Virus record (IMG/VR): IMGVR_UViG_3300031994_000009
Direction: 5' to 3' (one strand)
DNA: 64,000 nt
DNA from: a virus
Taxonomy: Duplodnaviria > Caudoviricetes
The notes under the pieces: model-generated
Databases searched by the model: none
The model's input: only the letters and a program-made list of their open reading frames with translations
Told to the model about the DNA's origin: nothing
Program-made: the position numbers and the translations under genes
Shown: piece by piece, positions 2-53,301 of the stretch
Layout: each line of letters begins with the position of its first letter
How positions within the stretch are numbered: the stretch's first letter is position 1

Positions 2-151
2 GAAGCTTGGGAGAACGTTGACAAGAAGATAACAGAGGTCCATGAGGATCTCAAGGGTGTCAAGTCGGAGGTCACTAGTATCGTCGCTTACCTTAACGGC
101 GGATACCAAAGCTTCAAGGATGAACACAAGGAAAATCCTGTTGGTTTATAA
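2..151 (+). CDS. Partial CDS (3' end), hypothetical protein
   Basis: Open frame from the window edge (EAWENVDKKITEVHEDLKGVKSEV...NPVGL) ending TAA at 149-151, followed by a hairpin. Confidence 0.6.
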   Translation, partial: EAWENVDKKITEVHEDLKGVKSEVTSIVAYLNGGYQSFKDEHKENPVGL

Positions 152-175
152 AAATCTAGATTGTTTTTTGTGAAT

Positions 176-205
176 GGATCGATCCCAGTGGGATCGATCC
201 ATTTT
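176..205 (+). terminator. GATC-core hairpin, probable intrinsic terminator
   Basis: GGATCGATCCC-AGT-GGGATCGATCC perfect stem followed by ATTTT. Confidence 0.6.
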
Positions 206-259
206 AATGTTTTAATAAAAACATGAGTATAATTAATATAAAATGTTTGTTTATGAGAT

Positions 260-706
260 TTGGCAACAAAGTTACAGGAAAAACTGAGGTGCGAGAGGAA
301 CGGTGAAGAGTTCGTTGACACAACTTTACAGAGCATAGGAAGGACGGCTGAGTCGCAGCACTATGTCAAGAATAACGATCTTCTCGAAGAGATAATAAAG
401 TGTAAGAAAGAGAACGGTGGCAAGGCTTCAGACAGGCTTGCCTCGATGTTCTTGCAGATAGCGACAAAGCTGTCAAACGGGTTGAAGTATAATAATGACG
501 ACGACAGACAGGACTGCATATATTTCGCCGTGTCTGATTGTCTTTTGTATTTCAACAGTTTCGATGAGAACCAGACGAAGAACGCCTTTGCGTACATCAC
601 GTCTATCTGTTGGAACGGTTTCGCCAAAGGATGGAGGAAGCTCGGGTACATGAAGCTTCCTAAATCCTTGCAGGTATCATTGTCAGACAACATTTATAGT
701 ATTTAG
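260..706 (+). CDS. gp55: T4 gp55-like late-transcription sigma factor
   Basis: HYVKNNDLLEEI...FLQIATKLS...FNSFDENQTKNAFAYITSICWN resembles gp55-family motifs. Confidence 0.8.
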   Translation: MATKLQEKLRCERNGEEFVDTTLQSIGRTAESQHYVKNNDLLEEIIKCKKENGGKASDRLASMFLQIATKLSNGLKYNNDDDRQDCIYFAVSDCLLYFNSFDENQTKNAFAYITSICWNGFAKGWRKLGYMKLPKSLQVSLSDNIYSI

Positions 707-709
707 AAA

Positions 710-1165
710 ATGGAGAACATAGAAGAAAAGAAATTGAATGAAATCCCATCTAACGATGGTGTGGAAAGTCTTCTGTCGAATGACAGGAATGACTTCGGTG
801 TTAACGAAACAAGTTTGCTCGATTCAAACGAAAATCTGTTTGACACTATTGATGAAAATGGTGGATCGTTGATCGGATCCGTTGCTGACACTGCTTCGTT
901 TGTCGAGATCAACAACGATGTTATGAGCGAAGAGGAAATCGAGATCAGGAAAAGGTTTTTCATGGATCCGAAGAATCAGGCTGACATATTGTTTGAGAAC
1001 TATGTCAGGGAACAGCCAATCAAGCTCAACAGGCAACAAAAAAGGAATGCTTATAGCCAATTTTTGAAGAACGCGAAGAAGGGCTTTTATAAGAGTGTAT
1101 TCAGCGAACTGATTTATGGAATATCCAAAGAGAAGTCTGAGAAGGATTTCGGGAAGCTGAATTAA
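710..1165 (+). CDS. Hypothetical protein
   Basis: 151-aa ORF packed 3 nt after gp55. Confidence 0.7.
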   Translation: MENIEEKKLNEIPSNDGVESLLSNDRNDFGVNETSLLDSNENLFDTIDENGGSLIGSVADTASFVEINNDVMSEEEIEIRKRFFMDPKNQADILFENYVREQPIKLNRQQKRNAYSQFLKNAKKGFYKSVFSELIYGISKEKSEKDFGKLN

Positions 1166-1196
1166 TCAATAAATAGGCAAAATTGATCTATTTGTA

Positions 1197-1568
1197 ATGT
1201 ATAAACAGATTTATGATATGACATATGATGATCCGATGGATGACGAGATGCCAGACGACGTAATGATGCAGAACTATGATACCACTTATGCACTTGATGG
1301 ATCTGATGCAGAAGATGAAGATGAGATCGATGAACCGTTTTATGTTGTGGCTGAACCAAAAACCTTGACTGGTGTCTTACGTGACGAATTGAAATTATTG
1401 GAGCCTGATCGCGGTACGTTGTTGTTCAGGTATATGGGTACGGATTATGAGGGTGTTCCTATGTTGGAAATTAATCCGAGTAAGTTTGTGTTCAAGATTT
1501 TGCCGAGTAACAAACTGAAGACTTTCTTGATTAACGAGATACAGTTGCGTAGGTTGGATGATAAATAA
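1197..1568 (+). CDS. Hypothetical acidic protein
   Basis: 123-aa ORF with ATAAATA at 1169-1175 upstream. Confidence 0.7.
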   Translation: MYKQIYDMTYDDPMDDEMPDDVMMQNYDTTYALDGSDAEDEDEIDEPFYVVAEPKTLTGVLRDELKLLEPDRGTLLFRYMGTDYEGVPMLEINPSKFVFKILPSNKLKTFLINEIQLRRLDDK

Positions 1569-1579
1569 GAAAACATTTA

Positions 1580-4500
1580 ATGGTAAATAACATGGCTATA
1601 AGAAAACAGATATTAGATCAGGATAATAATGAGATTCTTCCGATTACTGATACAGAATCAGTAAGGAATCCACAATCTGTAGGAGGTGTTCTTGAGAACA
1701 GATTGGTTAATCTGGAAGATAGCGTTGGCGATTTCATCCAGCGTCTTCCTGATGATCAATTCACAGAGGATAATTTTGCATCGTTTGATTCAAGTGGAGG
1801 AATCAAAGATAGCGGAAAGAAAGCAAGTGACTTCGCAACTTTGTTAGTCGCAAATAGCATCGAGCAGTTGACATCAGAACAAGTGGAAGGACTTAAAGTC
1901 GGTGATGTCGTCTCTGCAAGAGAGTTTGGGACTCTTACGCAAGAAATGGTGAATTTTACTGTTCAGTCTAAGTCAATCGAATCTTGCAGACTTGAATCGG
2001 TGTCCAGTGCACAAGTTCTTGAAGTTTCATACACGAAAGAAAACAACTTGTGGATGTTTGAAAACAGTACTGCAATGGCTTTTGAGGATTTGGCTGACAT
2101 TGACCTCAGTAACCTTTCTGGAGACGGTGAGGCAAGATTTGACGCAAAGGCTGACAAGGTTAGTGACGCTACAAGTGGTAACTTCGCAGGCTTAGACTCA
2201 AACGGCAACTTGACTGACAGCGGAAAGAAAGCATCCGACTTCGCGACGGCATCGCAAGGCGCGAAGGCTGACACAGCCGTGCAACAAGTTACTGTAGGCA
2301 CTACGACAACTGGGGCGGCTGGAACGGACGCAAGCGTCACCAACAGCGGAACGGCGACGAATCCCGTTCTTAATTTCACGATTCCGAGAGGAGCAAACGG
2401 GCAAGATGGTGCAGACGCATACAACCCGTTCAAGGGCACATATCTCATAACGGACACACTTCCATCAACAGGGCAGGCTGGCGACTACATCTACGTGGTG
2501 GACACGCAGACACCTCCAGTCACGCATCTGTATACTTGGAACGGAACTGCATTTGCTGACACAACGGAGACGGTTACTATGGGTAACGCTCAGTTCCAGA
2601 ACAGCACCAAGCAGATTTCGCAGACGAATGTCGTAAACGACTTGACTACTGGAGGCACTGAGGATGTGCTGAGTGCTGAGGCGGGAAAGACCCTTAATGA
2701 AAAAGCCATTGTGAATGTTAAAACTCTTGACAACAAAAGTGATAACATTGTCTTTGTTGATGAAAATAACAATATTCTTGCAATAATTGACAAAAACGGC
2801 ATTAAAACTAAAAACTTTGATCCAGCTTCATTTTCACCAAAGCATTCAGGGACTTTAACTTTATTAAATTCTGATATTATAACGGTTATTGGTTCTTCTT
2901 TTGGTGAAACGAGTGCTTTTCCAACCAACAAACATTGGAGCGGAATAATGTCAATGTTTTCTGATTACAGGATTCAGAATTTAAGTGCAGGCGGTTCAAA
3001 TATAGTCACCAATCTTTACAGAATAAGAAGCGGTGAATGGAATATTCAAGGAAAATATGTAGCAATAACCAATAATGAGAATCTTGATGGTTTGGATTTA
3101 ACACAATACATGGAAGGACTTGATAACCTTTGTACCACTTTGATTGGTATGGGTAAAATTCCAATTGTATGTACAAATTACCACAAATCACAATATTTCA
3201 GCATGGCAATTAAGAGATATGCCTATGAACACAACCTTATGTTTTGGGATGGTTCTGATTATTGCAATACTTTGGTTAGTGGTATATATGGTGGTTTTGA
3301 TGACGGCGCACACCTTAGAAAAAGAAATGCCCCAATGCTTGCCTACGCATATCTTAACTATATGAACCAAATGGGAAAACCATATAGTTCAATAAAAATA
3401 TTCAATATCAGGAATAGCGGTTTTTCAGGCAGTCTTGATGATTTGGTTTATTCAAATAATGTTGAAAGAGCTAAATTGTTCTGTGAATTGAAAATATCAC
3501 ATTCTCAAACGGTTGACGAATACAATAGAATTATAAGTAATTACGCAGTTGATTTTGGAAAATATGGTTTGATCGAATGCACAATACCGTCTACTTCAAA
3601 TTATGTGAATAAACTTAAATTGAATCTTGACACAAACGGCAAAAGCATAAAGGTATATATCAAGAATGTTTTGGCTGAGCCATATCCAAATACTAACCTA
3701 AGTTCAGTGGTAAGATTTAGCGTTTCTGATAGTACTATCAGCGTTCCTTCAATTGGTGATGTTTATTCCTACGGTGGTGTTAATTACACCGTTCAATCAG
3801 TTGTAATGGGTGAAAATGATTACTATTGTACTATTTATTGCTCACCCGCAACAATGCCTTCTTCACAGTCAGGAACATTGAATGTTGTTTCGCAGGTATC
3901 AGGTTCTGTTGGTTCAAGTAGTATTGCATTTGTGATGGCGGAAGAAACTTCACTTGACTTGTATTCATACATTAGTTCAGATAATAAGGGACATTGGGTT
4001 GAATTGACAGGTGAAAATGGTTCATATTCTGTTCCAACTACTTTGTTTAATGGCTCAATTCAAGTTGATAAAGTTTCATTCCTTATAATGTCAAATGAGG
4101 TTTCAAATACATTCCAAATTAAAGATGTCAGCTTAGATTATGATGTTGATGAACTGAAAACCGTTGAATCTAACAAGGATTTTGTTTGGTGTGAAAATGA
4201 CTATATAAGCACAAATGAACTTATTCAAGAATCAACCTTTGGAGTAGTAGGAACTACACAATCAACATGGTTTGATTCTAATGGTAATGGTGTTGTGTCA
4301 GTTGCTGATTATGAAAACAAATATCCAGCAGGTGCAACTTCAGAAATAGTTGTTTCTGATGTTTTATCAATGAACACCACGATAAATTCCTCAGTGCTGG
4401 ATAGGCATGGGAATATGTGGCTTGAGATATATTGCAGATATTTTCCCGATGCGCCAACACCTTACACACAAGCAAATGATACGGAAGTCAATGATATTTC

Positions 4501-4735
4501 CTATGATTTCAATGAACTGTTCATTAAATTCAGTCAGAACAGTAATGGCAGTGGTATCAACACGGTAATTCTATCTGAGGAAGTTGGACTTTATTGGAAG
4601 ATTGTCAGAATACCCATTTGTTGGTTCAGACAAGTTTACAATTCAGCGGGTAATATAACCAATATGTATTTGTCATTATATTCAAATAGCAAGAAGATTG
4701 AAATTTGCAAAGTGTCATTGAAATATGAACAATAA
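1580..4735 (+). CDS. Tail fibre/spike-like mosaic protein with SGNH-hydrolase-like module
   Basis: Duplicated DSGKKASDFAT motif, GTTTTGAAGTDASVTNSGT/collagen-like segment, then ITVIGSSFG...NLSAGGS...DGAH SGNH-like blocks; ATAAATA at 1561. Confidence 0.65.
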   Translation: MVNNMAIRKQILDQDNNEILPITDTESVRNPQSVGGVLENRLVNLEDSVGDFIQRLPDDQFTEDNFASFDSSGGIKDSGKKASDFATLLVANSIEQLTSEQVEGLKVGDVVSAREFGTLTQEMVNFTVQSKSIESCRLESVSSAQVLEVSYTKENNLWMFENSTAMAFEDLADIDLSNLSGDGEARFDAKADKVSDATSGNFAGLDSNGNLTDSGKKASDFATASQGAKADTAVQQVTVGTTTTGAAGTDASVTNSGTATNPVLNFTIPRGANGQDGADAYNPFKGTYLITDTLPSTGQAGDYIYVVDTQTPPVTHLYTWNGTAFADTTETVTMGNAQFQNSTKQISQTNVVNDLTTGGTEDVLSAEAGKTLNEKAIVNVKTLDNKSDNIVFVDENNNILAIIDKNGIKTKNFDPASFSPKHSGTLTLLNSDIITVIGSSFGETSAFPTNKHWSGIMSMFSDYRIQNLSAGGSNIVTNLYRIRSGEWNIQGKYVAITNNENLDGLDLTQYMEGLDNLCTTLIGMGKIPIVCTNYHKSQYFSMAIKRYAYEHNLMFWDGSDYCNTLVSGIYGGFDDGAHLRKRNAPMLAYAYLNYMNQMGKPYSSIKIFNIRNSGFSGSLDDLVYSNNVERAKLFCELKISHSQTVDEYNRIISNYAVDFGKYGLIECTIPSTSNYVNKLKLNLDTNGKSIKVYIKNVLAEPYPNTNLSSVVRFSVSDSTISVPSIGDVYSYGGVNYTVQSVVMGENDYYCTIYCSPATMPSSQSGTLNVVSQVSGSVGSSSIAFVMAEETSLDLYSYISSDNKGHWVELTGENGSYSVPTTLFNGSIQVDKVSFLIMSNEVSNTFQIKDVSLDYDVDELKTVESNKDFVWCENDYISTNELIQESTFGVVGTTQSTWFDSNGNGVVSVADYENKYPAGATSEIVVSDVLSMNTTINSSVLDRHGNMWLEIYCRYFPDAPTPYTQANDTEVNDISYDFNELFIKFSQNSNGSGINTVILSEEVGLYWKIVRIPICWFRQVYNSAGNITNMYLSLYSNSKKIEICKVSLKYEQ

Positions 4736-4753
4736 AATAAAAACTAATAGAAT

Positions 4754-5203
4754 ATGAATGTACTTATAAAAAATTCTGATTTCTCACAAGTCAGTGTTGG
4801 AACGGTAGGTGAACTTCCAATTGGTAGCGTTCTGTATCACGGCTTTTTACGTCCATCTGGCAATATTGACTATAGTGCAAGTAGGCTTAATTGTGTGTGT
4901 GTTGATTTGTCCCAAAGTACAGCAACAAAAATAAGAGTACATGGGTATTCAGGACGCGCAAATAAATGCTTATGCGCCTTCTATTCAGGTAGTATGCCAT
5001 CATCAGATATTACATTCACAAGTTCTTCTGAGGCTTCAGACTTTTCAACTTCAATGGGGAAACTTGGTAATATTTCAACAACTGAAACAACATCCATATG
5101 GTTAACAATGGATGTTGATATACCTGAAGGAACAAACACATTGGTTATAAATGTTGGTGAAAACGGTGAACCTAATGCTTGGGCTATTGAATTATATAAC
5201 TAA
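4754..5203 (+). CDS. Hypothetical protein, tail-fibre associated
   Basis: 149-aa ORF co-oriented with the fibre gene, with the same AT-rich, GATC-free composition. Confidence 0.6.
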   Translation: MNVLIKNSDFSQVSVGTVGELPIGSVLYHGFLRPSGNIDYSASRLNCVCVDLSQSTATKIRVHGYSGRANKCLCAFYSGSMPSSDITFTSSSEASDFSTSMGKLGNISTTETTSIWLTMDVDIPEGTNTLVINVGENGEPNAWAIELYN

Positions 5204-5250
5204 ATAGATTAGGTAGCTATGAAGTAAAGAATTTTGTTTTGGATAACATT

Positions 5251-6510: not shown

Positions 6511-8745
6511 ATGGCAAAGTATAAGTTACAGAAAAGCAACAATGTTGTTAGTTGCGAGGTCCTGAACGAGAGCGATGGGCAATATGTCGTAAGGTTTGGC
6601 AACGGAGTTATTCAAAGTGTTCCGAAGAATAGGGTTTTTAACCTTGACAGGATTGACGAGGGTGTCCTCGACACTGTTAGGGGTGCAGTCAACAAGTACG
6701 GAAGGAAGATTGCTTCGAAGATAAAGGATGTTGTTGGTAAAATTAAGGGTGTGCTGACGAAAGGGTTCCTTTTCTTTAAAGGTGATGATGATTCCGTGAT
6801 GAATGTCATGTCTCCAGTTAATACTATGATCGGCGCAGATACAACTGGAACATGTATTAATTTTATTCCTGGAAGTGATGTTCAGGATTGTTGTGATTAT
6901 TATGGAATAGAGCATAGTGTTATTAGCAATTATCCGATAGAAGGTGAATATCAGGGAGCTTTACAAATGGAAGATCTTATCAGGATGATTGGAAGATCAT
7001 CGAATGAATCATATAAGAGTTCTTCTGATATAATCGATGCATTGTTTGAATCTGAAGAGGATAAAAAAGATCTTTATGGTGAGAAATATCAACGTGATCT
7101 TGAACATAGTTTACAACTTTCTACAAATTCAGCAACTGTAAAACTTGACAACGGAGATGATGTTGTTGTTAATCTGATTGATTATGATAAGGAACATATC
7201 ATTAATTATGTTACTAAATCGTATAGAAGAGCTTTACGGGGATCTGATCTGTTTTTGCCATTATTGATTTTTGGAGCACCTGGTATAGGCAAGACGGCTA
7301 TTATCAGAGGATTACAAAATGTTGCTGCTTCGACAGCAGGAATAGATTCCGATCGTGTAAGTGTTATAACAATAGGTGCTGGAAATATTGGTCCAGATAG
7401 TTTTACGATGCCAGCTACAGTGAAGGAATATGTTACAAAACCTATATATACTGATGATACTGAGGAAGATAGGAAACGTAAGGAACTTCATAATGATGCT
7501 GTTCGTAGAAACAGGAAAGCTACTCAAGATTACTTACAAGATACTGGAGATTTGTCTCGTAAAATTCAGTTTGAAACTACTAGAATCAAAGATCTTCCCA
7601 AGACGTGGGTTCCTGCTTATGATCCAAGAGATATAGGTGCGTATACGGAAAAAGAGCTTGATAATATAGCAAATGGCGGTTGGTACGATGACGATGGTCA
7701 TGAATTTGTTGGCTATGGTGGATTCTTGTTTATTGATGAATTTGTTAGAATGACAGAGTTTGGCAAGGCTTCTATTATGAATCTTCCTGCTGATAGACTT
7801 ATAGGAAATTCTTTGAAACTTGGCAGCAGGTGGATTGTTATATGTGCTGCTAATAGATTCCAAGATATGCAACAAAGCGCAAATACACAAATTACAATGA
7901 CTATTGAGCCTGCTGTTTTAACCCGTTTCGCTATTATAAATTATGTTCCATCTATAGAAGAATGGACTTCGTGGGGAAAACAGGTTAAAAGTGATGGAGA
8001 ACCTAATGTAATAGATGAAATTCTTGAATATATCAATAGCGATTATATGAGAGTTCATACAAGGGCAAATCCTGGTCATTATGGTGATTTCTATAACATG
8101 TATAAAGCAGATGGTGATGTGAACACTATCGATGGCGAAAAAGCAAGAGCTTGTCCAAGAACATGGGAGAATGCTAGTAAGTTCTTATATGAGAATTATA
8201 TATTCGAGGGTATTGAATTAACAGATGTTCCGACCGAAGAACTTGTTAACAATTTAGCAATTATTTTAGGAACGAGTGTTGCTAACAGGTTTGTTTATTG
8301 GTTGCAAATGCAAAATAAGTCGTTTACTATTGCTGACGCAAGAGCCGTTCTTACTGATGGACAGAATGCAAAGATAGAATTATATAACCAAAAAAATAAG
8401 CAAACTATAAAGAGCACGTTTGATACTATTGTTCTTTCTATGTTGGATAGAGCATTGACAGAAGTTAGGGATATTAGTAACGAGACGTTGAACAATATTT
8501 TAGGGTTTGCTGGTAAACTAGCGGCGTTAGCTGGAGATAAGGGTACTTTTGATTTGGAAATCTTGGAAAAGATTCATGATCTTGTTGGTTCAAAGTTCAA
8601 AAACAATGAGCTTGGACGAAAAGATGAAAATGGACACAGGGTTTATGGATTTGAAGATAGTTTCAATAAGATGAAGAAAGCTGGAACTTTGGCACAATTG
8701 ATGAAGATGTTGCAGCAACTGCAAAATACAGGCGAAATAAATTAA
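6511..8745 (+). CDS. MoxR-like AAA+ ATPase with N-terminal extension
   Basis: Walker A GAPGIGKT, Walker B FLFIDE, sensor ICAAN, Arg finger VLTRF, CPRTW sensor II. Confidence 0.85.
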   Translation: MAKYKLQKSNNVVSCEVLNESDGQYVVRFGNGVIQSVPKNRVFNLDRIDEGVLDTVRGAVNKYGRKIASKIKDVVGKIKGVLTKGFLFFKGDDDSVMNVMSPVNTMIGADTTGTCINFIPGSDVQDCCDYYGIEHSVISNYPIEGEYQGALQMEDLIRMIGRSSNESYKSSSDIIDALFESEEDKKDLYGEKYQRDLEHSLQLSTNSATVKLDNGDDVVVNLIDYDKEHIINYVTKSYRRALRGSDLFLPLLIFGAPGIGKTAIIRGLQNVAASTAGIDSDRVSVITIGAGNIGPDSFTMPATVKEYVTKPIYTDDTEEDRKRKELHNDAVRRNRKATQDYLQDTGDLSRKIQFETTRIKDLPKTWVPAYDPRDIGAYTEKELDNIANGGWYDDDGHEFVGYGGFLFIDEFVRMTEFGKASIMNLPADRLIGNSLKLGSRWIVICAANRFQDMQQSANTQITMTIEPAVLTRFAIINYVPSIEEWTSWGKQVKSDGEPNVIDEILEYINSDYMRVHTRANPGHYGDFYNMYKADGDVNTIDGEKARACPRTWENASKFLYENYIFEGIELTDVPTEELVNNLAIILGTSVANRFVYWLQMQNKSFTIADARAVLTDGQNAKIELYNQKNKQTIKSTFDTIVLSMLDRALTEVRDISNETLNNILGFAGKLAALAGDKGTFDLEILEKIHDLVGSKFKNNELGRKDENGHRVYGFEDSFNKMKKAGTLAQLMKMLQQLQNTGEIN

Positions 8746-8755
8746 TTTTTGAGAA

Positions 8756-9529
8756 ATGTATATTATAAAACATATCAACGAAGATCGTTTTGATGATTTA
8801 CATCGTAATGATCAAACGAATATTGAACCAGTTGATGTTAAAATTTCAGCAAATCCGAACGACGCTGATGTTTGGATGGATGTTGATGGTACTGTATATG
8901 ATAAGAAACTTTTACTCGGTATATTAAATATTGCGTTAAAAGATTTGTCTTCTACTTATAGTTCAATATATTCGGCTCTAGGTCATGTGAATGTTGACTA
9001 TGTGTCTTCGTCGAATGTTCGTACCATGGCAACAGATGGCGATTCTATATTCATATCTCCAAAGTTTGTTACTTATTTTATTGATAAGTATGGGCCAAAG
9101 GAAGCTGCTCAAATTGTTGAGTATGTTTTGATTCATGAGTGTTTTCATATCCTTTATAACCATTGTTATGAACATATGACGGAGATGTCGAAATTTCCAG
9201 ATGCTGATGTTGTTAATATGGCTCAAGATTTTCAGATCAACTATGATATAGAAAATTTTATACTTGGATCAAAGGGGACTCCAGTTTTTAAGGGGTTGAC
9301 AAAAAAAGCTGGTGGTTTATATGATGAAAAGTATGGAGGAAAAATGTGGCAGAAGATATATCCTGAGATTTTTGAGGATGGTGTTTTAGTTCCACGTTTT
9401 CCGAAGCAACAAACTCCTCCTGAATGGAAACAAGGTTTTTCAGATGGGTATGCTGAGGTTATAGAAGAACTTAGAAAACAGAAATTAATAGAACAATGCC
9501 AAATATTGAACAAGACGTTTATCAAATAA
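8756..9529 (+). CDS. DUF2201_N-like HExxH metallopeptidase
   Basis: TMATDG, VLIHECFHILYNH and VNMAQDFQIN motifs; adjacent to MoxR ATPase. Confidence 0.8.
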   Translation: MYIIKHINEDRFDDLHRNDQTNIEPVDVKISANPNDADVWMDVDGTVYDKKLLLGILNIALKDLSSTYSSIYSALGHVNVDYVSSSNVRTMATDGDSIFISPKFVTYFIDKYGPKEAAQIVEYVLIHECFHILYNHCYEHMTEMSKFPDADVVNMAQDFQINYDIENFILGSKGTPVFKGLTKKAGGLYDEKYGGKMWQKIYPEIFEDGVLVPRFPKQQTPPEWKQGFSDGYAEVIEELRKQKLIEQCQILNKTFIK

Positions 9530-12500
9530 TACAAAGCGGTCTTAGTGAAGATGAAAAAATTAGAAAGATCAAAAACATCTTTTTGAAAAATCAATCTTCA
9601 AGTAATTCTTCTAATTCTGGGGGGGTTCCGTCAAAATTGGATCCTTATGATGTTGGATATCTTTCTGGAAGGCAATATGCTATGGAAGTTTTTGCAAATC
9701 ATGGTTATCCTACTGTGATGCAAGATGTTTTTGACTTGCCGTCTGGTCTTGAGAAGATGAAACTTATAGATAAGATCCATGAGTCTTTTGCTCAAGATGA
9801 TGATATTAGAACCATTTTGAGAGATTTGAATATTGACGATAGACAGAAAGCTAAGAATATTTGTAGTATAATGTCTCAAAGTCAAGGTGGTGATCAAGCT
9901 GGAGAAAATGGTGAAAAAAATTCTGGTTCATCTGAACAAAACCAGAATATCGATAATATGACAGGGCAACAGGCCGCGAATGCCGCTCAGCAGGCGGCTA
10001 ACCAAGCCCAGCAAGCCGCTGATCAGGCACAACAGGCCTCGAATGCAGCTCAGCAGGCGGCTAACCAAGCCCAGCAAGCCGCTGATCAGGCACAATCTTC
10101 TAGTAGTTCGTCTGCTAACCAAGCCCAGCAAGCCGCTGATCAGGCACAACAGGCTGCGAATGCAGCTCAACAGGCGGCTAACCGAGCCCAGCAAGCCGCT
10201 GATCAGGCACAACAGGCCGCGAATGAATCTCAGAATTCTGCAAAAAAAGGAGATGAATCTTCTGCTAGGGCTAAAGCTAAAGAAGCAATGGATGCTGCTA
10301 ACCAAGCCCAGCAAGCTGCAAATCAAGCTGGGAATAATGGTTCCCAACAAGTAAGTTCTGGTAGTTCTCAACAAGGGTCTAATCAAGGACAGCCTAGCTC
10401 AAGTTCTGGTGGTTCTCAACAAGGGTCTAATCAAGGACAGCCTAGCTCAAGTTCTGGTGGAACTGGGTCTTCTCCATTTGGAGGACAAAGTGTAAGGGTT
10501 TTCAATAATGGAGCATTTGATGAAAATGATCCTATGGGAACAAACGATGTTCTTACTCCTGAAGAAGGTGATGCTATTCGAAAAGAAAATAATATAGAAG
10601 CTGTAGACAAGGGTCATTTTTCGAAATCCGATGTTACCGCAAGTACACAAGAATCTATTGGTGCTCTTAAAAAGGTTTATAACAAATACAAAGCAGTTAA
10701 AGGAACGGAAACGGATCCTGTTGATTTTAACGCACTGGAAAACAACTTTAAGAAAAGTAGGGAAGGTATAATTGACTGGGGTGCTGCTTTAAGACGTTTT
10801 GCGTCAAGACAATCTTCTTTGGCTATTACTGGTCCAATTATGATGAACAGGCTTGTTTATGGTGGAATTAAATCTACATATCAACGTAAATTGAAGACAA
10901 ATTTCAATAAATGCGTGCTTTATATAGATACGTCTGGTAGTGTTAATAACAATATGACACAATTGATTCCTATCATGTGTGGAGAGATTGTTAACATAAT
11001 GAAGAGTTGTAATTTCACACATGTTGATATTGTTCTGTTTACAACATCTTGTTACAAAAGGTTTGAGGTTACACCACAAAAGTATCTAAATCAAGGTGCT
11101 GTTTTGTCTGAAGTGAAAGATGGTGGAACAGATATCCAATCCGTTTATAAAGACATTTATAATACATATACAAAAAAGACAGGTAATCTATCATCAGAAA
11201 TTAATGCTGTTATTCTTATAACAGATATTTCTGGTATGGAAACTGGAGGTGATATCAATGGGACATGGGGTAAGAAATTGAAACCGCAAACATTGTCGAA
11301 AATGTTATATGTGGTTTACAATGATTATCGTTATGAATTGCTTGAACAGGTTAAACAGTCTATGAATAATCTTGTTTCATCAAAATCGTCTCATGTTGAA
11401 ATATCTCTTGAAGTTTTCAAAAGACAGATCAAGAACATGGCCAAGAAATTCAATAAAGGTGGTGTTCATTTTATGTCGGATGATATTGATAAATATGAAA
11501 ATAAAGAACAAAACGAGACAATGTCACTGAAATACAAGAGAAAATATAAAATTAATGAAGACATCGACGATCTCGACGATGATTTTTTCTCGTCGCTTGA
11601 GGATGACGATGCCATGGTAAAGACTGCTGAGGTTTCCGATGAGGAGATTTTCCGTAACAGGATTAGTAGCGCCAGAACAGCTGGTACATTGGATAGGGCT
11701 ATTCCAGATTATATCAAACAGATTTCTGACAATTTTCCGCAACTGCAAGTTGTTAAGAATATGGATGATGTGTATGGGAACGAAAATTCATACTATGTGA
11801 CTAATGACGTTACATTCGTTATCAACATGAACGTTAACAACGATAATGTAGGAAGGTTCATGAATCTTTTCGGAAACAAGGAATATCCTATCATCGTAGA
11901 TCGATTGATTGGCAATTTTGATATTGATGGTGACCGCGGATTTACAGGTTTTCCTTATGGGTTCCCACAAGAAGTTCAAGGTTCCGTTTTTATCGTCGAT
12001 TGTGATGATTTTGGTCCATATGATAAACATAAAATGACAACTGATCAAATGCAGAATTTATTTAAGTATGCACCAAATGTTATTACAAAAAATCTGTGTT
12101 TAAGTGTGATGGATAGAACGTTTCAATCTATTTGCGATTTATATGGTAAAAAAATGGAAGAAAAAGGAACACATTATTATAAATTGAATAGCGCATTTTC
12201 AAGATATTCAAACGAAAGTCTCCAGTCAATTATACAGAAGAGGATAGCCATAGGACAGGCTTATCTGAACGAGAGCTTCACAGAAGCTTCTGGGTTGAAG
12301 AAATTGTTTCCATATGACGGTATGCCGAAGTCAGATCGTGGTGTCTTGAATGATAATCTCAGAATTTTCAAGAAAGTTATCAAGCCCATCACCAATCTTC
12401 CTTGGGGCAGCTTGACTGATAAGGATGTCAAGGTTGTAGATCAAACGACAAAGATGAACGATCTTATCAAGAAGCCTTCGACAGAGTTCAATAAACTTGA

Positions 12501-48997: not shown

Positions 48998-49026
48998 TAT
49001 ATTTTCTTTTTTTGGTTTGGAAATGT

Positions 49027-49039
49027 TCCGTATATTTGC
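49027..49039 (+). promoter_or_regulatory. Host-type promoter TCCGTATATTTGC driving the cas gene
   Basis: Exact motif copy with upstream TTTG; 20 nt before ATG 49059. Confidence 0.8.
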
Positions 49040-49058
49040 AGCACTAAAACTAACCAAT

Positions 49059-51329
49059 ATGGGACATGTACGTTTGCAAAAAAGAGAGGGAGAGGTTTAT
49101 AAGACCTACAAACTTAAAGTAAAGAGCTTTTCTGGCAATGTAGACATTAAAGCTGGTATCGTTGAATACGATCAAAAGTTCAACAACGTGAGCCAATGGA
49201 TCGCAGATCACCTAACTTCGATGACTATCGGGGAAGCGGCAAGCAGGATTAGCCCTCATAAGATGGATTCGCAATATGCAATGACATCTTTGAGCGACGA
49301 GTGGAAAGATCAACCACTTTACAAAATCTTCACGAGAGGTTTCGGTGGAATGAACGCCGACAACCTTATTATCGAATGTACTAAGACGGAAGAGAATTGT
49401 AAATATGACAAAGAGAAGTCACTTGGTTTCTCTGAATCTGTTTTCAGGACTTTTGGTTTTGCCGCAAATGCTTCTTCAGACATGAAATCGAGAATGACCC
49501 AAGCAAAGGTCAAGATTGGAAGAAAGAATATCGATGAGGATTCGGCTGATGACGAAAAATGCCTGCAAGCGATCTATGAGATTCAAAAGAATGAGTTGCT
49601 TACTGACGATAACTGGAAAGATCGTATCGGATATCTTGAGATGAAGGGCGATCAGGAAAGGGAACTCGAAAGAACTACAATCCTTTATGATTATTATAGG
49701 GCCAACAGAACAACAGTGTTGGATAAGTTGGATAATCTTAAAGTCGAAACGTTAAGCAAGTTCCGTGGAAGCAAGAGAAAATCCGACAGAAAGATTTTGA
49801 CTCTCAATGGCATATCGTATGATATAAAGAGAAAGGAAGGTTGCCAAGGGTTTGAACTGAAGTTTTCTGTCGACAAGAACCATATGGAGTTCGATTTGCT
49901 TGGACATCGTGCTTTGATCAAAAACGGAGAGATGCTGGTTGATATAGAGAATTGCCATGGATCTCAGTTATCTTTAGAAATAGATGGAGACGACATGTAT
50001 GCCATTATCTCGATGAGAACGTTCTGTGAAAAGAATGAGTCAAAGCTTGAAAAGATTATCGGTGCAGATGTCAATATTAAGCATATGTTTCTTATGACAT
50101 CAGAAAAGGATGACGGAAACACGAAATGCTATGTCAATCTATATAGAGAGTTGTTGTCCGATAGTGATTTTACAGATGTCCTGAATAAGGAAGAGTATGA
50201 GATTTTCTCCGAACTTTCAAAATATGTAATGTTCGGTTTGATCGAGACTCCGTATCTTGGATCCCGTGTTATAGGAACGACACAACACGAGAAGATCGTC
50301 GAGGATAAGATTACTTCTGGAATGAAGAAGATCGCCATCAGACTGTTCCAAGAGGGGAAGGTTCGCGAAAGAATCTATGTTCAGAATGTGCTGAAGATCC
50401 GTGCCTTGCTGAAAGCTTTGTTCTCTACGAAACTCGCTTACTCGAATGAACAGAAGATCTATGACAATCTGATGAGATTCGGGGAAAAGGATGACAGGAG
50501 AAAGGATGAAGGTTTCCATACAACGTGCCGTGGAACCAGCCTTCGTTCGGAAATGGACATGCTTTCCAAGAAGATCCTTGCGTGTAGGGACAATATCGTG
50601 GAATACGGTTATTATGTGATCGGACTGAACGGGTTCGATGGGATTTCCCTTGAGAACTTGGAGAGTTCAACTTTCATGGATGTTAAGATCAGCTATCCAT
50701 CTTGTAATTCTATGCTGGATCATTTCAAGCTAAAAGGGAAGACAATCGAGGAAGCGGAAAATCACGAAACTGTCGGGAAGTTTATCAAAAAGGGGTATTA
50801 TGTCATGACTCTCGTTAACGGGAAAATCAACGATATAAATTATTCGGAAAAAGCAGTAATGCTTCACAAGAAGAACTTGCTGTACGACACTGTCATCAAG
50901 TCTACACATTTTGCAGATGTGAAGGATAAGTTTGTGGAACTGTCGAATAACGGAAAGGTCAGCGTTGTCATCGTCCCGCCATATTTTTCTTCGCAAATGG
51001 ACAGTGTTACTCATAAAGTGTTTACTGAGGAGATTGTTGTTCAGAAGAAGAGCAGCAACGGAAAAGTCAGAAAAACGAAGAAGACAGTTCTTGTAGACAA
51101 GAGAAAAGTGAGAAAGACACAGGAGTCGCATATCAATGGTCTTAATGCTGACTATAATGCAGCACTCAACCTGAAATATATCGCCGAAACAATTGATTGG
51201 AGAAGTACGCTTTGTTTCAAGACATGGAATACGTATGGTTCTCCTCAATGGGACTCGAAGATCAAGAACCAGAAAACGATGATCGATCGACTGGATTCGT
51301 TGGGTGCAATAGAATTGAAAAACTGGTGA
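49059..51329 (+). CDS. cas12: Compact type V CRISPR effector, Cas-lambda-like (phage Cas12 family), 756 aa
   Basis: RuvC-I IIGADVN (D337), RuvC-II ISLENL (E532), RuvC-III NADYNAA (D698); YKTYKLKVK N-terminus, SDEWKD, HFADVKD, SQMDS motifs recalled from Cas-lambda; array starts 89 nt downstream. Confidence 0.9.
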   Translation: MGHVRLQKREGEVYKTYKLKVKSFSGNVDIKAGIVEYDQKFNNVSQWIADHLTSMTIGEAASRISPHKMDSQYAMTSLSDEWKDQPLYKIFTRGFGGMNADNLIIECTKTEENCKYDKEKSLGFSESVFRTFGFAANASSDMKSRMTQAKVKIGRKNIDEDSADDEKCLQAIYEIQKNELLTDDNWKDRIGYLEMKGDQERELERTTILYDYYRANRTTVLDKLDNLKVETLSKFRGSKRKSDRKILTLNGISYDIKRKEGCQGFELKFSVDKNHMEFDLLGHRALIKNGEMLVDIENCHGSQLSLEIDGDDMYAIISMRTFCEKNESKLEKIIGADVNIKHMFLMTSEKDDGNTKCYVNLYRELLSDSDFTDVLNKEEYEIFSELSKYVMFGLIETPYLGSRVIGTTQHEKIVEDKITSGMKKIAIRLFQEGKVRERIYVQNVLKIRALLKALFSTKLAYSNEQKIYDNLMRFGEKDDRRKDEGFHTTCRGTSLRSEMDMLSKKILACRDNIVEYGYYVIGLNGFDGISLENLESSTFMDVKISYPSCNSMLDHFKLKGKTIEEAENHETVGKFIKKGYYVMTLVNGKINDINYSEKAVMLHKKNLLYDTVIKSTHFADVKDKFVELSNNGKVSVVIVPPYFSSQMDSVTHKVFTEEIVVQKKSSNGKVRKTKKTVLVDKRKVRKTQESHINGLNADYNAALNLKYIAETIDWRSTLCFKTWNTYGSPQWDSKIKNQKTMIDRLDSLGAIELKNW

Positions 51330-51418
51330 TTTTGATCATGGTTTTGAAACAAAATATTGATTTTTCGTTCTTTGACATGCTTGTTAAAAATTGAGTATCA
51401 GTTTAATATAAAGAATAT
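51330..51418 (+). promoter_or_regulatory. CRISPR leader
   Basis: AT-rich 89 nt adjoining the most conserved repeats. Confidence 0.6.
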
Positions 51419-52034
51419 ATTGTTGTAAATGGCTTTTTATGGGCAACGAACAACTCTCGTCCGATTTCCACCGATACCTAAGACATTGTTGTAAATGGCT
51501 TTTTATGGGCAACGAACAACTGTATGACAGTGAAATTGTCGGGCGTAAAAATTGTTGTAAATGGCTTTTTATGGGCAACGAACAACTCAGGGGCAGTGGC
51601 CTCATCGTCATAGAACATTGTTGTAAATGGCTTTTTATGGGCAACGAACAACACGCTTTCAACTGGTGAAAAACTTGCATTAACTGTTGTAAATGGCTTT
51701 TTATGGGCAACGAACAACTCGAATGGCTATGGCTTGGGTGAGTTCGAAACTGTTGTAAATGGCTTTTTATGGGCAACGAACAACTCAACTTCATCTGATA
51801 TGACTTTTACTTCAACTGTTGTAACTGGCTTTTTTGGGGTCATGAACAACGGATCGTTCCCTGTCGATGAACATCCATGCATTGTTGTAAATGGCTTTTT
51901 TGGGGCCGCGAACAACCCTATCATAGGCATCATGTTTATTTATACATTGTTGTAAATGGCTTTTTTAGATCCGCGAACAACCAACAGAATGATGAAGTTT
52001 TGCAAATGTTATTGTTGTAAATGGTTTTTTTTTT

Positions 52035-52528
52035 GGGAATTATATACCTGATGGCACAAAATGAATAATAACAAATTAAAATACAATAAGATGAAGAAGA
52101 TTTTTATTATGTGCTTAATTGCACTTGGAATGATGTTTATCTCTTGCACTAAACAAAGAGATTCTTATTATGTGAAATATGAAGTTGTTGTAAGCAATCC
52201 GCCTTACAATGCTCCTTCAGCACAATTAGAATTGCTTACTGAAAATACTATTGTTACAAAATCAATAGTAGGCTCATTTACAGAAGTTTATGGTCCATAT
52301 AAATACCATGACAGTACATATTTAAAAATAAGTTGTAATCACGGACATTATAGTTGGAATACAGTAAACGCTTATGGGAAAATATATGTTTCAAAAAACG
52401 AAGAGCCATTTGTGTTAAAACAAGAAATTTCAACAAGATTGGGAGGTGATTCAGACCATGATAATTGTGAAATTTCATATATTATTGACTTTTGATTTTA
52501 ATCTTGTGCCAACAAGTATATAATTACC
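52035..52528. mobile_element. Non-autonomous TIR-bounded cassette (IS1595/ISNwi1-like ends) carrying a lipoprotein gene
   Basis: 28-bp TIRs, 24/28 identical (GGGAATTATATACCTGATGGCACAAAAT vs revcomp GGTAATTATATACTTGTTGGCACAAGAT); T10 on both sides; no transposase. Confidence 0.8.
52091..52495 (+). CDS. Lipoprotein (passenger gene)
   Basis: MKKIFIMCLIALGMMFISC signal peptide II/lipobox; 134 aa. Confidence 0.8.
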   Translation: MKKIFIMCLIALGMMFISCTKQRDSYYVKYEVVVSNPPYNAPSAQLELLTENTIVTKSIVGSFTEVYGPYKYHDSTYLKISCNHGHYSWNTVNAYGKIYVSKNEEPFVLKQEISTRLGGDSDHDNCEISYIIDF

Positions 52529-52655
52529 TTTTTTTTTTAGGGCCATGAACAACGGGGCCATGAACAACTATGATTCTTTATCTCGCCATGTGGCGAGAAA
52601 ATTGGCGAGAATTTGATGAGATTCTATAAGATTGATTTTTTTCAAAAATAAAAAA

Positions 52656-52668
52656 TCCGTATATTTGC
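52656..52668 (+). promoter_or_regulatory. Promoter TCCGTATATTTGC
   Basis: Exact motif copy 3 nt before ATG 52672. Confidence 0.8.
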
Positions 52669-52671
52669 ATC

Positions 52672-53106
52672 ATGCAGATCTTTTTACCATACAAATCACC
52701 GATCGACGTTGCCAGAACATTGGATCCTCGTCGTCTTAACAAGCAGATCATAGAATGTCGACAGATTCTTGCAGCCATAGATCAAAAATCCCTTGCATGG
52801 GCACACCATCCAGTTGTTCTCATGTATAGGGAACATCGATCGTTTGTAGAGAACTATATGTACACACTTGAGTGCTATCAGAAGAATGACATATCTACAG
52901 CTGAGTTTTTTAGCACAGTTGCCATAGGATGGATTCCGTGGTTTGTGACGGAGGATTTCATCATCCAGCATAGAAGAAGGCTCTACACGAAAGATAATGG
53001 CTTCTACAAGGATTTTTCTGTGTATGGAGAGAGCGAAGAGAATTGGTATGTCGTGGATGGTAAGCTTATTAAATATAAAAACGGAAAAATACAAAAAGAG
53101 AAATAA
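52672..53106 (+). CDS. Pyrimidine-dimer DNA glycosylase/DenV-like family protein
   Basis: MQIFLPY...LDPRRLNKQIIECRQIL...HHPVVLMY. Confidence 0.75.
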   Translation: MQIFLPYKSPIDVARTLDPRRLNKQIIECRQILAAIDQKSLAWAHHPVVLMYREHRSFVENYMYTLECYQKNDISTAEFFSTVAIGWIPWFVTEDFIIQHRRRLYTKDNGFYKDFSVYGESEENWYVVDGKLIKYKNGKIQKEK

Positions 53107-53109
53107 GAT

Positions 53110-53301
53110 ATGACAGTAAAAGAACTTATAGAAGAATTAAGTCATTATAACCCTAATGCATTAGTTACAGTTGGAGATAACTTGTACAACGGAATATCAA
53201 TATCCATCAGCGGAGGTGATGGGTGTACGAAATTGGATTGTGATTTTGTATGCTTTGATAAAATTAATAAGCAAGAGAATAATGAAAGCGCACCCTTGTA
53301 A
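53110..53301 (+). CDS. Small hypothetical protein
   Basis: MTVKELIEEL start common in small phage ORFs. Confidence 0.6.
   Translation: MTVKELIEELSHYNPNALVTVGDNLYNGISISISGGDGCTKLDCDFVCFDKINKQENNESAPL

Follow-up and report, generated by a model that had tools for sequence, protein, structure and literature searches.

A lipoprotein gene carried by a probable IS1595-derived mobile insertion cassette in the terminal repeat of a phage Cas-lambda CRISPR array

The stretch of DNA analysed here (64 kb in its whole length, hereafter the window) is of phage origin and encodes a major capsid protein of T4 type (Pfam Gp23, 1.1e-35) as well as a prohead protease. Immediately 3' of the capsid gene lies a 770-aa ORF that, in a phmmer search of the PDB, matches CasLambda (8DC2, E 3.6e-136) and CasLambda2 (9IZP, 5.5e-110) over nearly its full length, and to which a Pfam search assigned no family. 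Judged by this homology and by the repeat-spacer array that follows the effector gene, the system encoded in the window is a Cas-lambda (Cas12n) CRISPR system. The gene located just 3' of the array (52672-53106) is that of a pyrimidine-dimer DNA glycosylase (Pfam Pyr_excise, 1.6e-10). The features of the locus are collected in Table 1 together with those of the related elements considered below.

Table 1. Features of the Cas-lambda locus and of elements with related ends (transposase identities are relative to the copy of phage G002).
Sequence	Feature	Positions	Strand	Length	Remarks
Window	Cas-lambda (Cas12n) effector gene, 770-aa ORF from the first start codon	49017..51329	+		phmmer against PDB
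Window	AT-rich leader, from the Cas-lambda stop codon to the first repeat	51330..51418	+	89 nt	sequence
Window	CRISPR repeats 1-9 (36 nt) and spacers 1-8 (30 nt, one of 29)	51419..51981	+		
Window	Spacer 9	51982..52010	+	29 nt	
Window	5' half of terminal repeat 10	52011..52024	+		14/14 identical to consensus
Window	Left T10 run, target T-tract of the repeat	52025..52034	+		holds left copy of presumed 8-bp duplication
Window	Probable mobile insertion cassette (transposase-less IS1595 derivative)	52035..52528	+	494 bp	29% GC
Window	Left terminal inverted repeat	52035..52059	+	25 nt	
Window	Cargo gene, predicted 134-aa lipoprotein	52091..52495	+		invariant Ser18-Cys19; predicted 8-strand beta-sandwich
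Window	Right terminal inverted repeat	52504..52528	-		22/25 identical to left
Window	Right T10 run	52529..52538	+		holds right copy of presumed duplication
Window	3' half of terminal repeat 10	52539..52553	+	15 nt	
Window	Near-exact tandem copy of the repeat's 3' half	52554..52568	+	15 nt	unexplained by transposition
L006	Cassette, 90-aa ORF	9310-9664		355 bp	exact T6A2 octamer flanks
L017 (phage G002)	Cassette, 291-aa ORF	1501-2786		1286 bp	A-run flanks
L027	Complete element, transposase 98% identical	2875-5034		2160 bp	flanks without match
L028	Complete element, transposase 97% identical	2875-4359		1485 bp	exact A5T3 octamer on both sides
L029	Complete element, transposase 55% identical	2902-5234		2333 bp	exact T4A2T2 flanks
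L030	Complete element, transposase 51% identical	1604-4690		3087 bp	flanks match at 7/8 positions
L110 (Bacteroidia genome)	Complete element, transposase 38% identical	18-1523		1506 bp	exact T5ACT flanks

The array begins with nine full repeats of 36 nt, the first of which starts at 51419 and which follow each other at a spacing of 66 nt seven times and then of 65 nt. Repeats 1-4 are identical and repeats 5-9 differ from the consensus at 1, 1, 7, 4 and 6 positions, i.e., the identical repeats lie at the leader end of the array and the degenerate ones at its far end. Repeat 10, which begins on register at 52011, is split at its central T-run by an insert of 494 bp; its 3' half is very similar to the corresponding parts of repeats 7-9. 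The coordinates, the split of repeat 10 and the counts given in the initial annotation of this DNA proved exact to the base when compared with the sequence and with the outcome of a repeat search. No match to any of the nine spacers was found in the collected loci or elsewhere in the window.

The insert is bounded by inverted repeats that are identical at 22 of 25 positions, at 24 of 28 over a longer span (the value proposed initially, which is confirmed) and at 84% over 31 nt in the repeat search. Two copies of the 25-nt end are present in the window, in inverted orientation and at the two borders of the insert, and none of 100 shuffled versions of the window contained two copies with up to three mismatches. 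The GC content of the insert is 29%, compared with 38% for the window. The 134-aa ORF is the sole sizeable ORF on the + strand of the insert, in agreement with the earlier statement that only a lipoprotein is encoded there. A tblastn search with an IS1595 transposase as a query found no transposase in the 64-kb window, and a search of the insert region against Rfam returned nothing. A sigma-54 promoter, suggested by a TGGCAC sequence inside the end, was discarded because the -12 element is missing. The absence of GATC from the insert, pointed out at the outset, is real but not significant, since the composition of the insert itself predicts 1.3 copies and 10% of the 494-bp windows of the phage are also free of GATC; avoidance of this tetranucleotide was therefore dropped as a sign of foreign origin. 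In the whole window, GATC is present in 420 copies (6.6 per kb), about twice our own base-composition estimate.

The T10 runs on both sides of the insert are compatible with an 8-bp target duplication, the exact length of which is hidden by the homopolymer flanks. When the insert is excised in silico together with an 8-bp duplication, the product is a repeat of 41 nt with a T12 run, as compared with the normal 36 nt, and so the T-run either expanded before the insertion or slipped afterwards. This is the one detail that sits awkwardly with the transposition model. One may ask whether the split repeat was instead created during assembly, through a mis-join at two homopolymer T-runs that put foreign low-GC DNA into the array: both junctions are T10 runs, and the GC content of the insert is below that of its surroundings. 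A chimera, however, would not be expected to consist of a complete element, both inverted ends of which exactly abut the on-register halves of one and the same repeat. Furthermore, the ten in-frame codons in front of the start are the same in one homologue of the cargo protein from another assembly, which suggests, at the protein level only, that the cassette is present as a unit in other DNA too. An assembly artefact is thus extremely improbable.

A blastn search with positions 49000-53200 gave no match among 50,697 phage records and hence no empty allele. No relative of the window array was found in IMG/VR with the Cas-lambda protein as a query; the CRISPR repeat pattern gave three chance matches in coding DNA and no arrays in the same database, and JGI metagenomes searched with a Cas-lambda alignment returned only the twin of a second Cas-lambda phage, G001, described below, and no relative of the window array. 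The nine intact repeats serve as paralogous empty sites only.

Elements that share the ends of the insert and encode a transposase do exist. When the core of the end sequence was searched for in IMG/VR, four phage contigs were found, in which a relaxed search of the whole records detected 4, 9, 2 and 2 copies of the end motif, compared with none for the reversed control. One of these phages, G002 (147 kb), encodes a transposase of 311 aa with matches to PF12762 (1.1e-44) and PF12760 (7.8e-9; L024, 91-1026) and a score of 203.7 bits on the NCBIfam model NF033547, the cut-off of which is 75. A passenger ORF of 185 aa comes next after the transposase gene, and beyond it lies a copy of the end motif. 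Having the Zn_ribbon_IS1595 and DDE_Tnp_IS1595 domains, the cognate transposase is, by domain content, an IS1595 enzyme. The G002-type transposase has thousands of relatives, none of which carries an ISfinder name.

When the G002 transposase was used as a query, complete copies of the element were found in other phage contigs (Table 1). An end search of Bacteroidota genomes for the autonomous partner had been recommended in the initial annotation: the exact end motif is present in only 2 of 401 sampled Bacteroidia genomes, a rarity that counts against the proposed origin of the cassette, and one of the two occurrences is a complete IS1595 element (L110), which shares the outer 13 bases, GGnAAyTATATAC. 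Of the six complete relatives that share these ends, five have 8-bp duplications at their borders, and these are composed solely of A and T in all cases but one. If the eight elements of Table 1 are taken together, matching flanks are seen in seven, in six of which they are A/T-only. The lack of matching flanks around one autonomous copy, L027, counts against the transposition reading. Over 26-31 nt, the left end of the cassette shows 96% identity to the end that lies distal to the transposase gene in the L027 and L028 elements, the longer matches (to 31 nt) taking in a few flanking T bases, and overall the cassette ends are 92-96% identical to the ends of these two elements over 26-31 nt (blastn). 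The ends, 25-31 nt in length, are all that blastn finds in common between the window insert and the full elements.

The IS1595 family is defined by 8-bp duplications and by a transposase that has a zinc finger at its N-terminus and a DDE domain at its C-terminus (PMC8101967). The assignment of the insert to IS1595 made from the ends and the presumed target duplication is thus borne out at the family level, because the same ends bound elements with an IS1595 transposase and with 8-bp duplications in five of six cases; the expectation that such elements carry passenger genes is upheld by the full elements, which bear passenger ORFs beside the transposase gene. The GG..TAT tip of the cassette fits the presumed end consensus of ISNwi1, and the insert may belong to this subgroup, as proposed initially.

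It could be argued that the inverted 25-mers are not transposon ends at all and represent a regulatory motif of these phages, a promoter/terminator module at which genes are exchanged by homologous recombination as they are in the promoter-stem-loop cassettes of T4-type phages. The motif is indeed frequent in these phages and often stands alone beside hairpins and T-runs, and in G001 its copies have been duplicated together with about 40 nt of flanking sequence, which is a signature of recombination. However, the same motif bounds elements with an IS1595 transposase, and duplications flank five of the six complete relatives, one of which resides in a bacterial genome; moreover, paired copies of the motif are inverted rather than direct, and recombination between such motifs cannot yield a split repeat. 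A promoter/terminator module is largely refuted by the transposase-bearing copies with their duplications, and this explanation is highly improbable.

The element tips in phage contigs nearly always adjoin runs of A or T, often the T-run of a terminator hairpin. Tips located in or beside the T-runs of hairpin terminators are seen in L006 (9270-9310), L012 (1420-1530) and L015 (1524-1560). At some solo ends the motif is directly followed by a hairpin with a T-run, and it may be that the elements bring or replace terminators.

The cassette of the window has counterparts among the transposase-less elements of other phages. Several cassettes share the ends yet carry different, unrelated small genes. 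In three of them, irrespective of the flanking sequence, the start of the cargo ORF is located 27-33 nt inward from the same end. Most of the other cargos, like that of the window, have no match in Pfam, NCBIfam, PHROG or PADLOC; the exception is a GHKL-type ATPase of 520 aa encoded by G001. In the G002 cassette, a GC-rich segment of ~350 nt with several hairpin-like parts (L017, 1524-1870) precedes the 291-aa orphan ORF; a search of this cassette against Rfam gave no match.

Further derivatives are those of G001 (IMG/VR contig 3300031994_000044; L004 5578-10620, the same as L109 and L112), a phage with a Cas-lambda effector 36% identical to that of the window. The last ~35 codons of the transposase gene are still present inside the G001 elements, which are, as this remnant indicates, decay intermediates on the way from a passenger-carrying IS to a cassette. 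The effector gene and the array of G001 lie between the tips of two IS1595-derived elements, one located 32 nt past the terminal repeat and the other just upstream of the effector gene. A block composed of a degenerate CRISPR repeat, about 32 nt and an element end is present twice, the extra copy being located further upstream, and so is a block composed of an element end and its flank of about 40 nt; these paired blocks point to a segmental duplication. The element situated between the duplicated blocks is the one that encodes the 520-aa GHKL ATPase, which matches the PADLOC model MzaB (2.8e-22).

The cargo of the window cassette is predicted to be a bacterial lipoprotein with a signal peptide and a lipobox cysteine. 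By inspection, its N-terminus is hydrophobic and terminates in a Ser-Cys pair that does not vary among 11 homologues. The AlphaFold model (pLDDT 79.5) contains the N-terminal helix and an eight-strand beta-sandwich, the best PDB match of which is the generic sandwich of MmpS5 (Foldseek E 6.5e-3), with no specific fold match; the neighbours of the protein in a language-model atlas are unnamed Bacteroidota lipoproteins and an MmpS-like family. The protein itself has no match in Pfam, NCBIfam, PHROG or PADLOC. About ten clusters of homologues were found, with identities of 53-88%, and one cluster comes from a genome bin of Bacteroidales. An in-frame start codon located upstream, at 52061, would extend the protein to 144 aa, and the leader of ten codons shared with the homologue from another assembly suggests, at the protein level, that the lipoprotein gene moves together with the 5' part of the cassette. 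More distant relatives, 30-33% identical and present in one Bacteroidia genome and in one IMG/VR contig, are lipoproteins that lack the ends, from which it follows that the cargo gene is of host type, as had been claimed before. Its product could act at the host envelope, for instance by masking a receptor or by excluding superinfecting phages, but such a role is proposed tentatively and is rather doubtful. The gene may be expressed by read-through from the promoter of the array.

The consequences of the insertion for the array can be considered in the light of the published processing mechanism. Cas-lambda1 and Cas-lambda2 cut pre-crRNA within the spacer, 16-18 nt past the repeat-derived scaffold (PMC12141684). 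A cut inside the spacer means that a guide needs only the repeat on its 5' side, and the loss of the terminal repeat should therefore spare all nine guides. A crRNA of the window array would consist of the upstream repeat and 16-18 nt of the spacer, and the terminal repeat would guide nothing useful. All nine spacers thus probably stay usable despite the insertion, and the site would be a tolerated landing place, neutral for CRISPR function.

A different possibility is that a function explains why the cassette came to lie, or was retained, at the end of the array: the lipoprotein gene would be transcribed together with pre-crRNA, so that its product is made each time Cas-lambda is expressed, and this coupling would have been selected. 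The cargo gene and the array are on the same strand, a simple consensus scan of positions 51200-52800 revealed no terminator-like site, and the tip of an element of the same family is found 32 nt past the terminal repeat in G001, the second Cas-lambda phage. Opposed to this is the absence of same-family element ends within 6 kb at four of the six distinct Cas-lambda loci, namely at the four further loci from IMG/VR (five were found, two of which have the same sequence). Insertions of this family are also seen in the T-runs of terminators and in other A/T runs without relation to CRISPR, and the position of the cargo start close to the element end in three cassettes suits expression from the element itself. 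Selection for such a coupling is very unlikely, and a specific link between the elements and Cas-lambda arrays was dropped because only two of the six distinct loci carry an element; their association is unproven. That IS1595-derived cassettes act as a principal means for large rumen phages to exchange small accessory genes, and also shape Cas-lambda loci, is unlikely as well; on this reading, which draws on the arrangement in G001, whole Cas-lambda modules might pass from phage to phage as compound transposons. In another Cas-lambda array, that of L116/L117 (about 8415-9990, at least 20 repeats), one start-to-start gap measures 196 nt, compared with 66 nt, and probably contains two decayed repeats or a small insertion.

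Taken together, these data make it very probable that the insert is a mobile insertion cassette (MIC), a deletion derivative of an IS1595 element that was mobilised in trans and landed in the T-run of a repeat, with the function of the array spared. Its ends are the same as those of transposase-bearing elements, it has no transposase gene, and it contains a passenger gene. According to the definitions of MICs and transporter ISs (PMC3129680), the full elements are transporter ISs and the element of the window is a MIC. The original proposal of a non-autonomous IS1595-type cassette, mobilised in trans and inserted into the T-tract, is thus supported both by the complete IS1595 elements with the same ends and by the lack of a transposase in the window.

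The following course of events would account for the locus. A passenger-carrying IS of the IS1595 family would have given rise to a deletion derivative that kept the two ends of ~25 nt and one passenger gene. An IS1595 DDE transposase supplied in trans would recognise these ends and paste the cassette into an A/T-only octamer, which would be duplicated in the process; the transposase could come from a copy in the host chromosome, from a co-infecting phage or from a region of the phage outside the window. The cassette would have landed in the last repeat of the Cas-lambda array, which had already degenerated, with the central T-run of this repeat as its target. A/T-only octamers make up 1.7% of window positions. 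The intact repeats have at most seven consecutive A/T bases and thus contain no A/T-only octamer; in the terminal repeat, the C that precedes the T-run has been lost through a C-to-T change and the run is longer. It is because the terminal repeat alone offers an A/T-only octamer that the insertion would have occurred there.

Phage genomes are usually considered poor in insertion sequences. A single IS1595 lineage turns up, together with its transposase-less cassettes, in several large rumen phage contigs that are unrelated to each other, each time with a different orphan gene, and such cassettes may offer virulent-type phages a concrete way to gain accessory genes one at a time. The terminal repeat of a Cas-lambda array would be a safe harbour for them, in agreement with the published mechanism of processing. 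The findings also mark a small lipoprotein of Bacteroidota type as a candidate phage accessory gene.

The lipoproteins Llp of phage T5 and Cor of phages phi80 and HK022 block superinfection. Like the cargo of the cassette, they are small lipoproteins encoded by accessory genes of phages; no relation to the cargo was found in either sequence or fold. In bacteria and archaea, ISs and MITEs are found inserted in CRISPR arrays and in cas genes. In contrast to these, the array considered here is encoded by a phage and belongs to a Cas-lambda system, the repeat that is hit is the dispensable terminal one, and the element brings a gene with it. ISs of the IS1595 family and their passenger-carrying 'transporter IS' forms are reportedly treated by Siguier, Gagnevin and Chandler (2009). 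The partner elements of the cassette share with these forms (PMC3129680, PMC8101967) the transposase with a zinc ribbon and DDE_Tnp_IS1595, the ends that start with GG, the 8-bp duplications and the passengers; the element of the window differs from them in being devoid of any transposase gene, and the targets observed here are almost all A/T-only octamers. A close parallel is offered by MICs, a category defined by ISfinder/ISsaga (PMC3129680), such as MIC231, which derives from IS231 in Bacillus cereus and resembles the window cassette in its IS-type inverted ends, the absence of a transposase, the presence of one or more passenger genes and mobilisation in trans by the cognate transposase. 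Unlike MIC231, the cassette descends from the IS1595 family and not from IS4/IS231, and it sits in a large virulent-type phage, inside a CRISPR repeat. The element belongs to a known kind and has an unusual location; it represents neither a new kind of element nor a new CRISPR mechanism.
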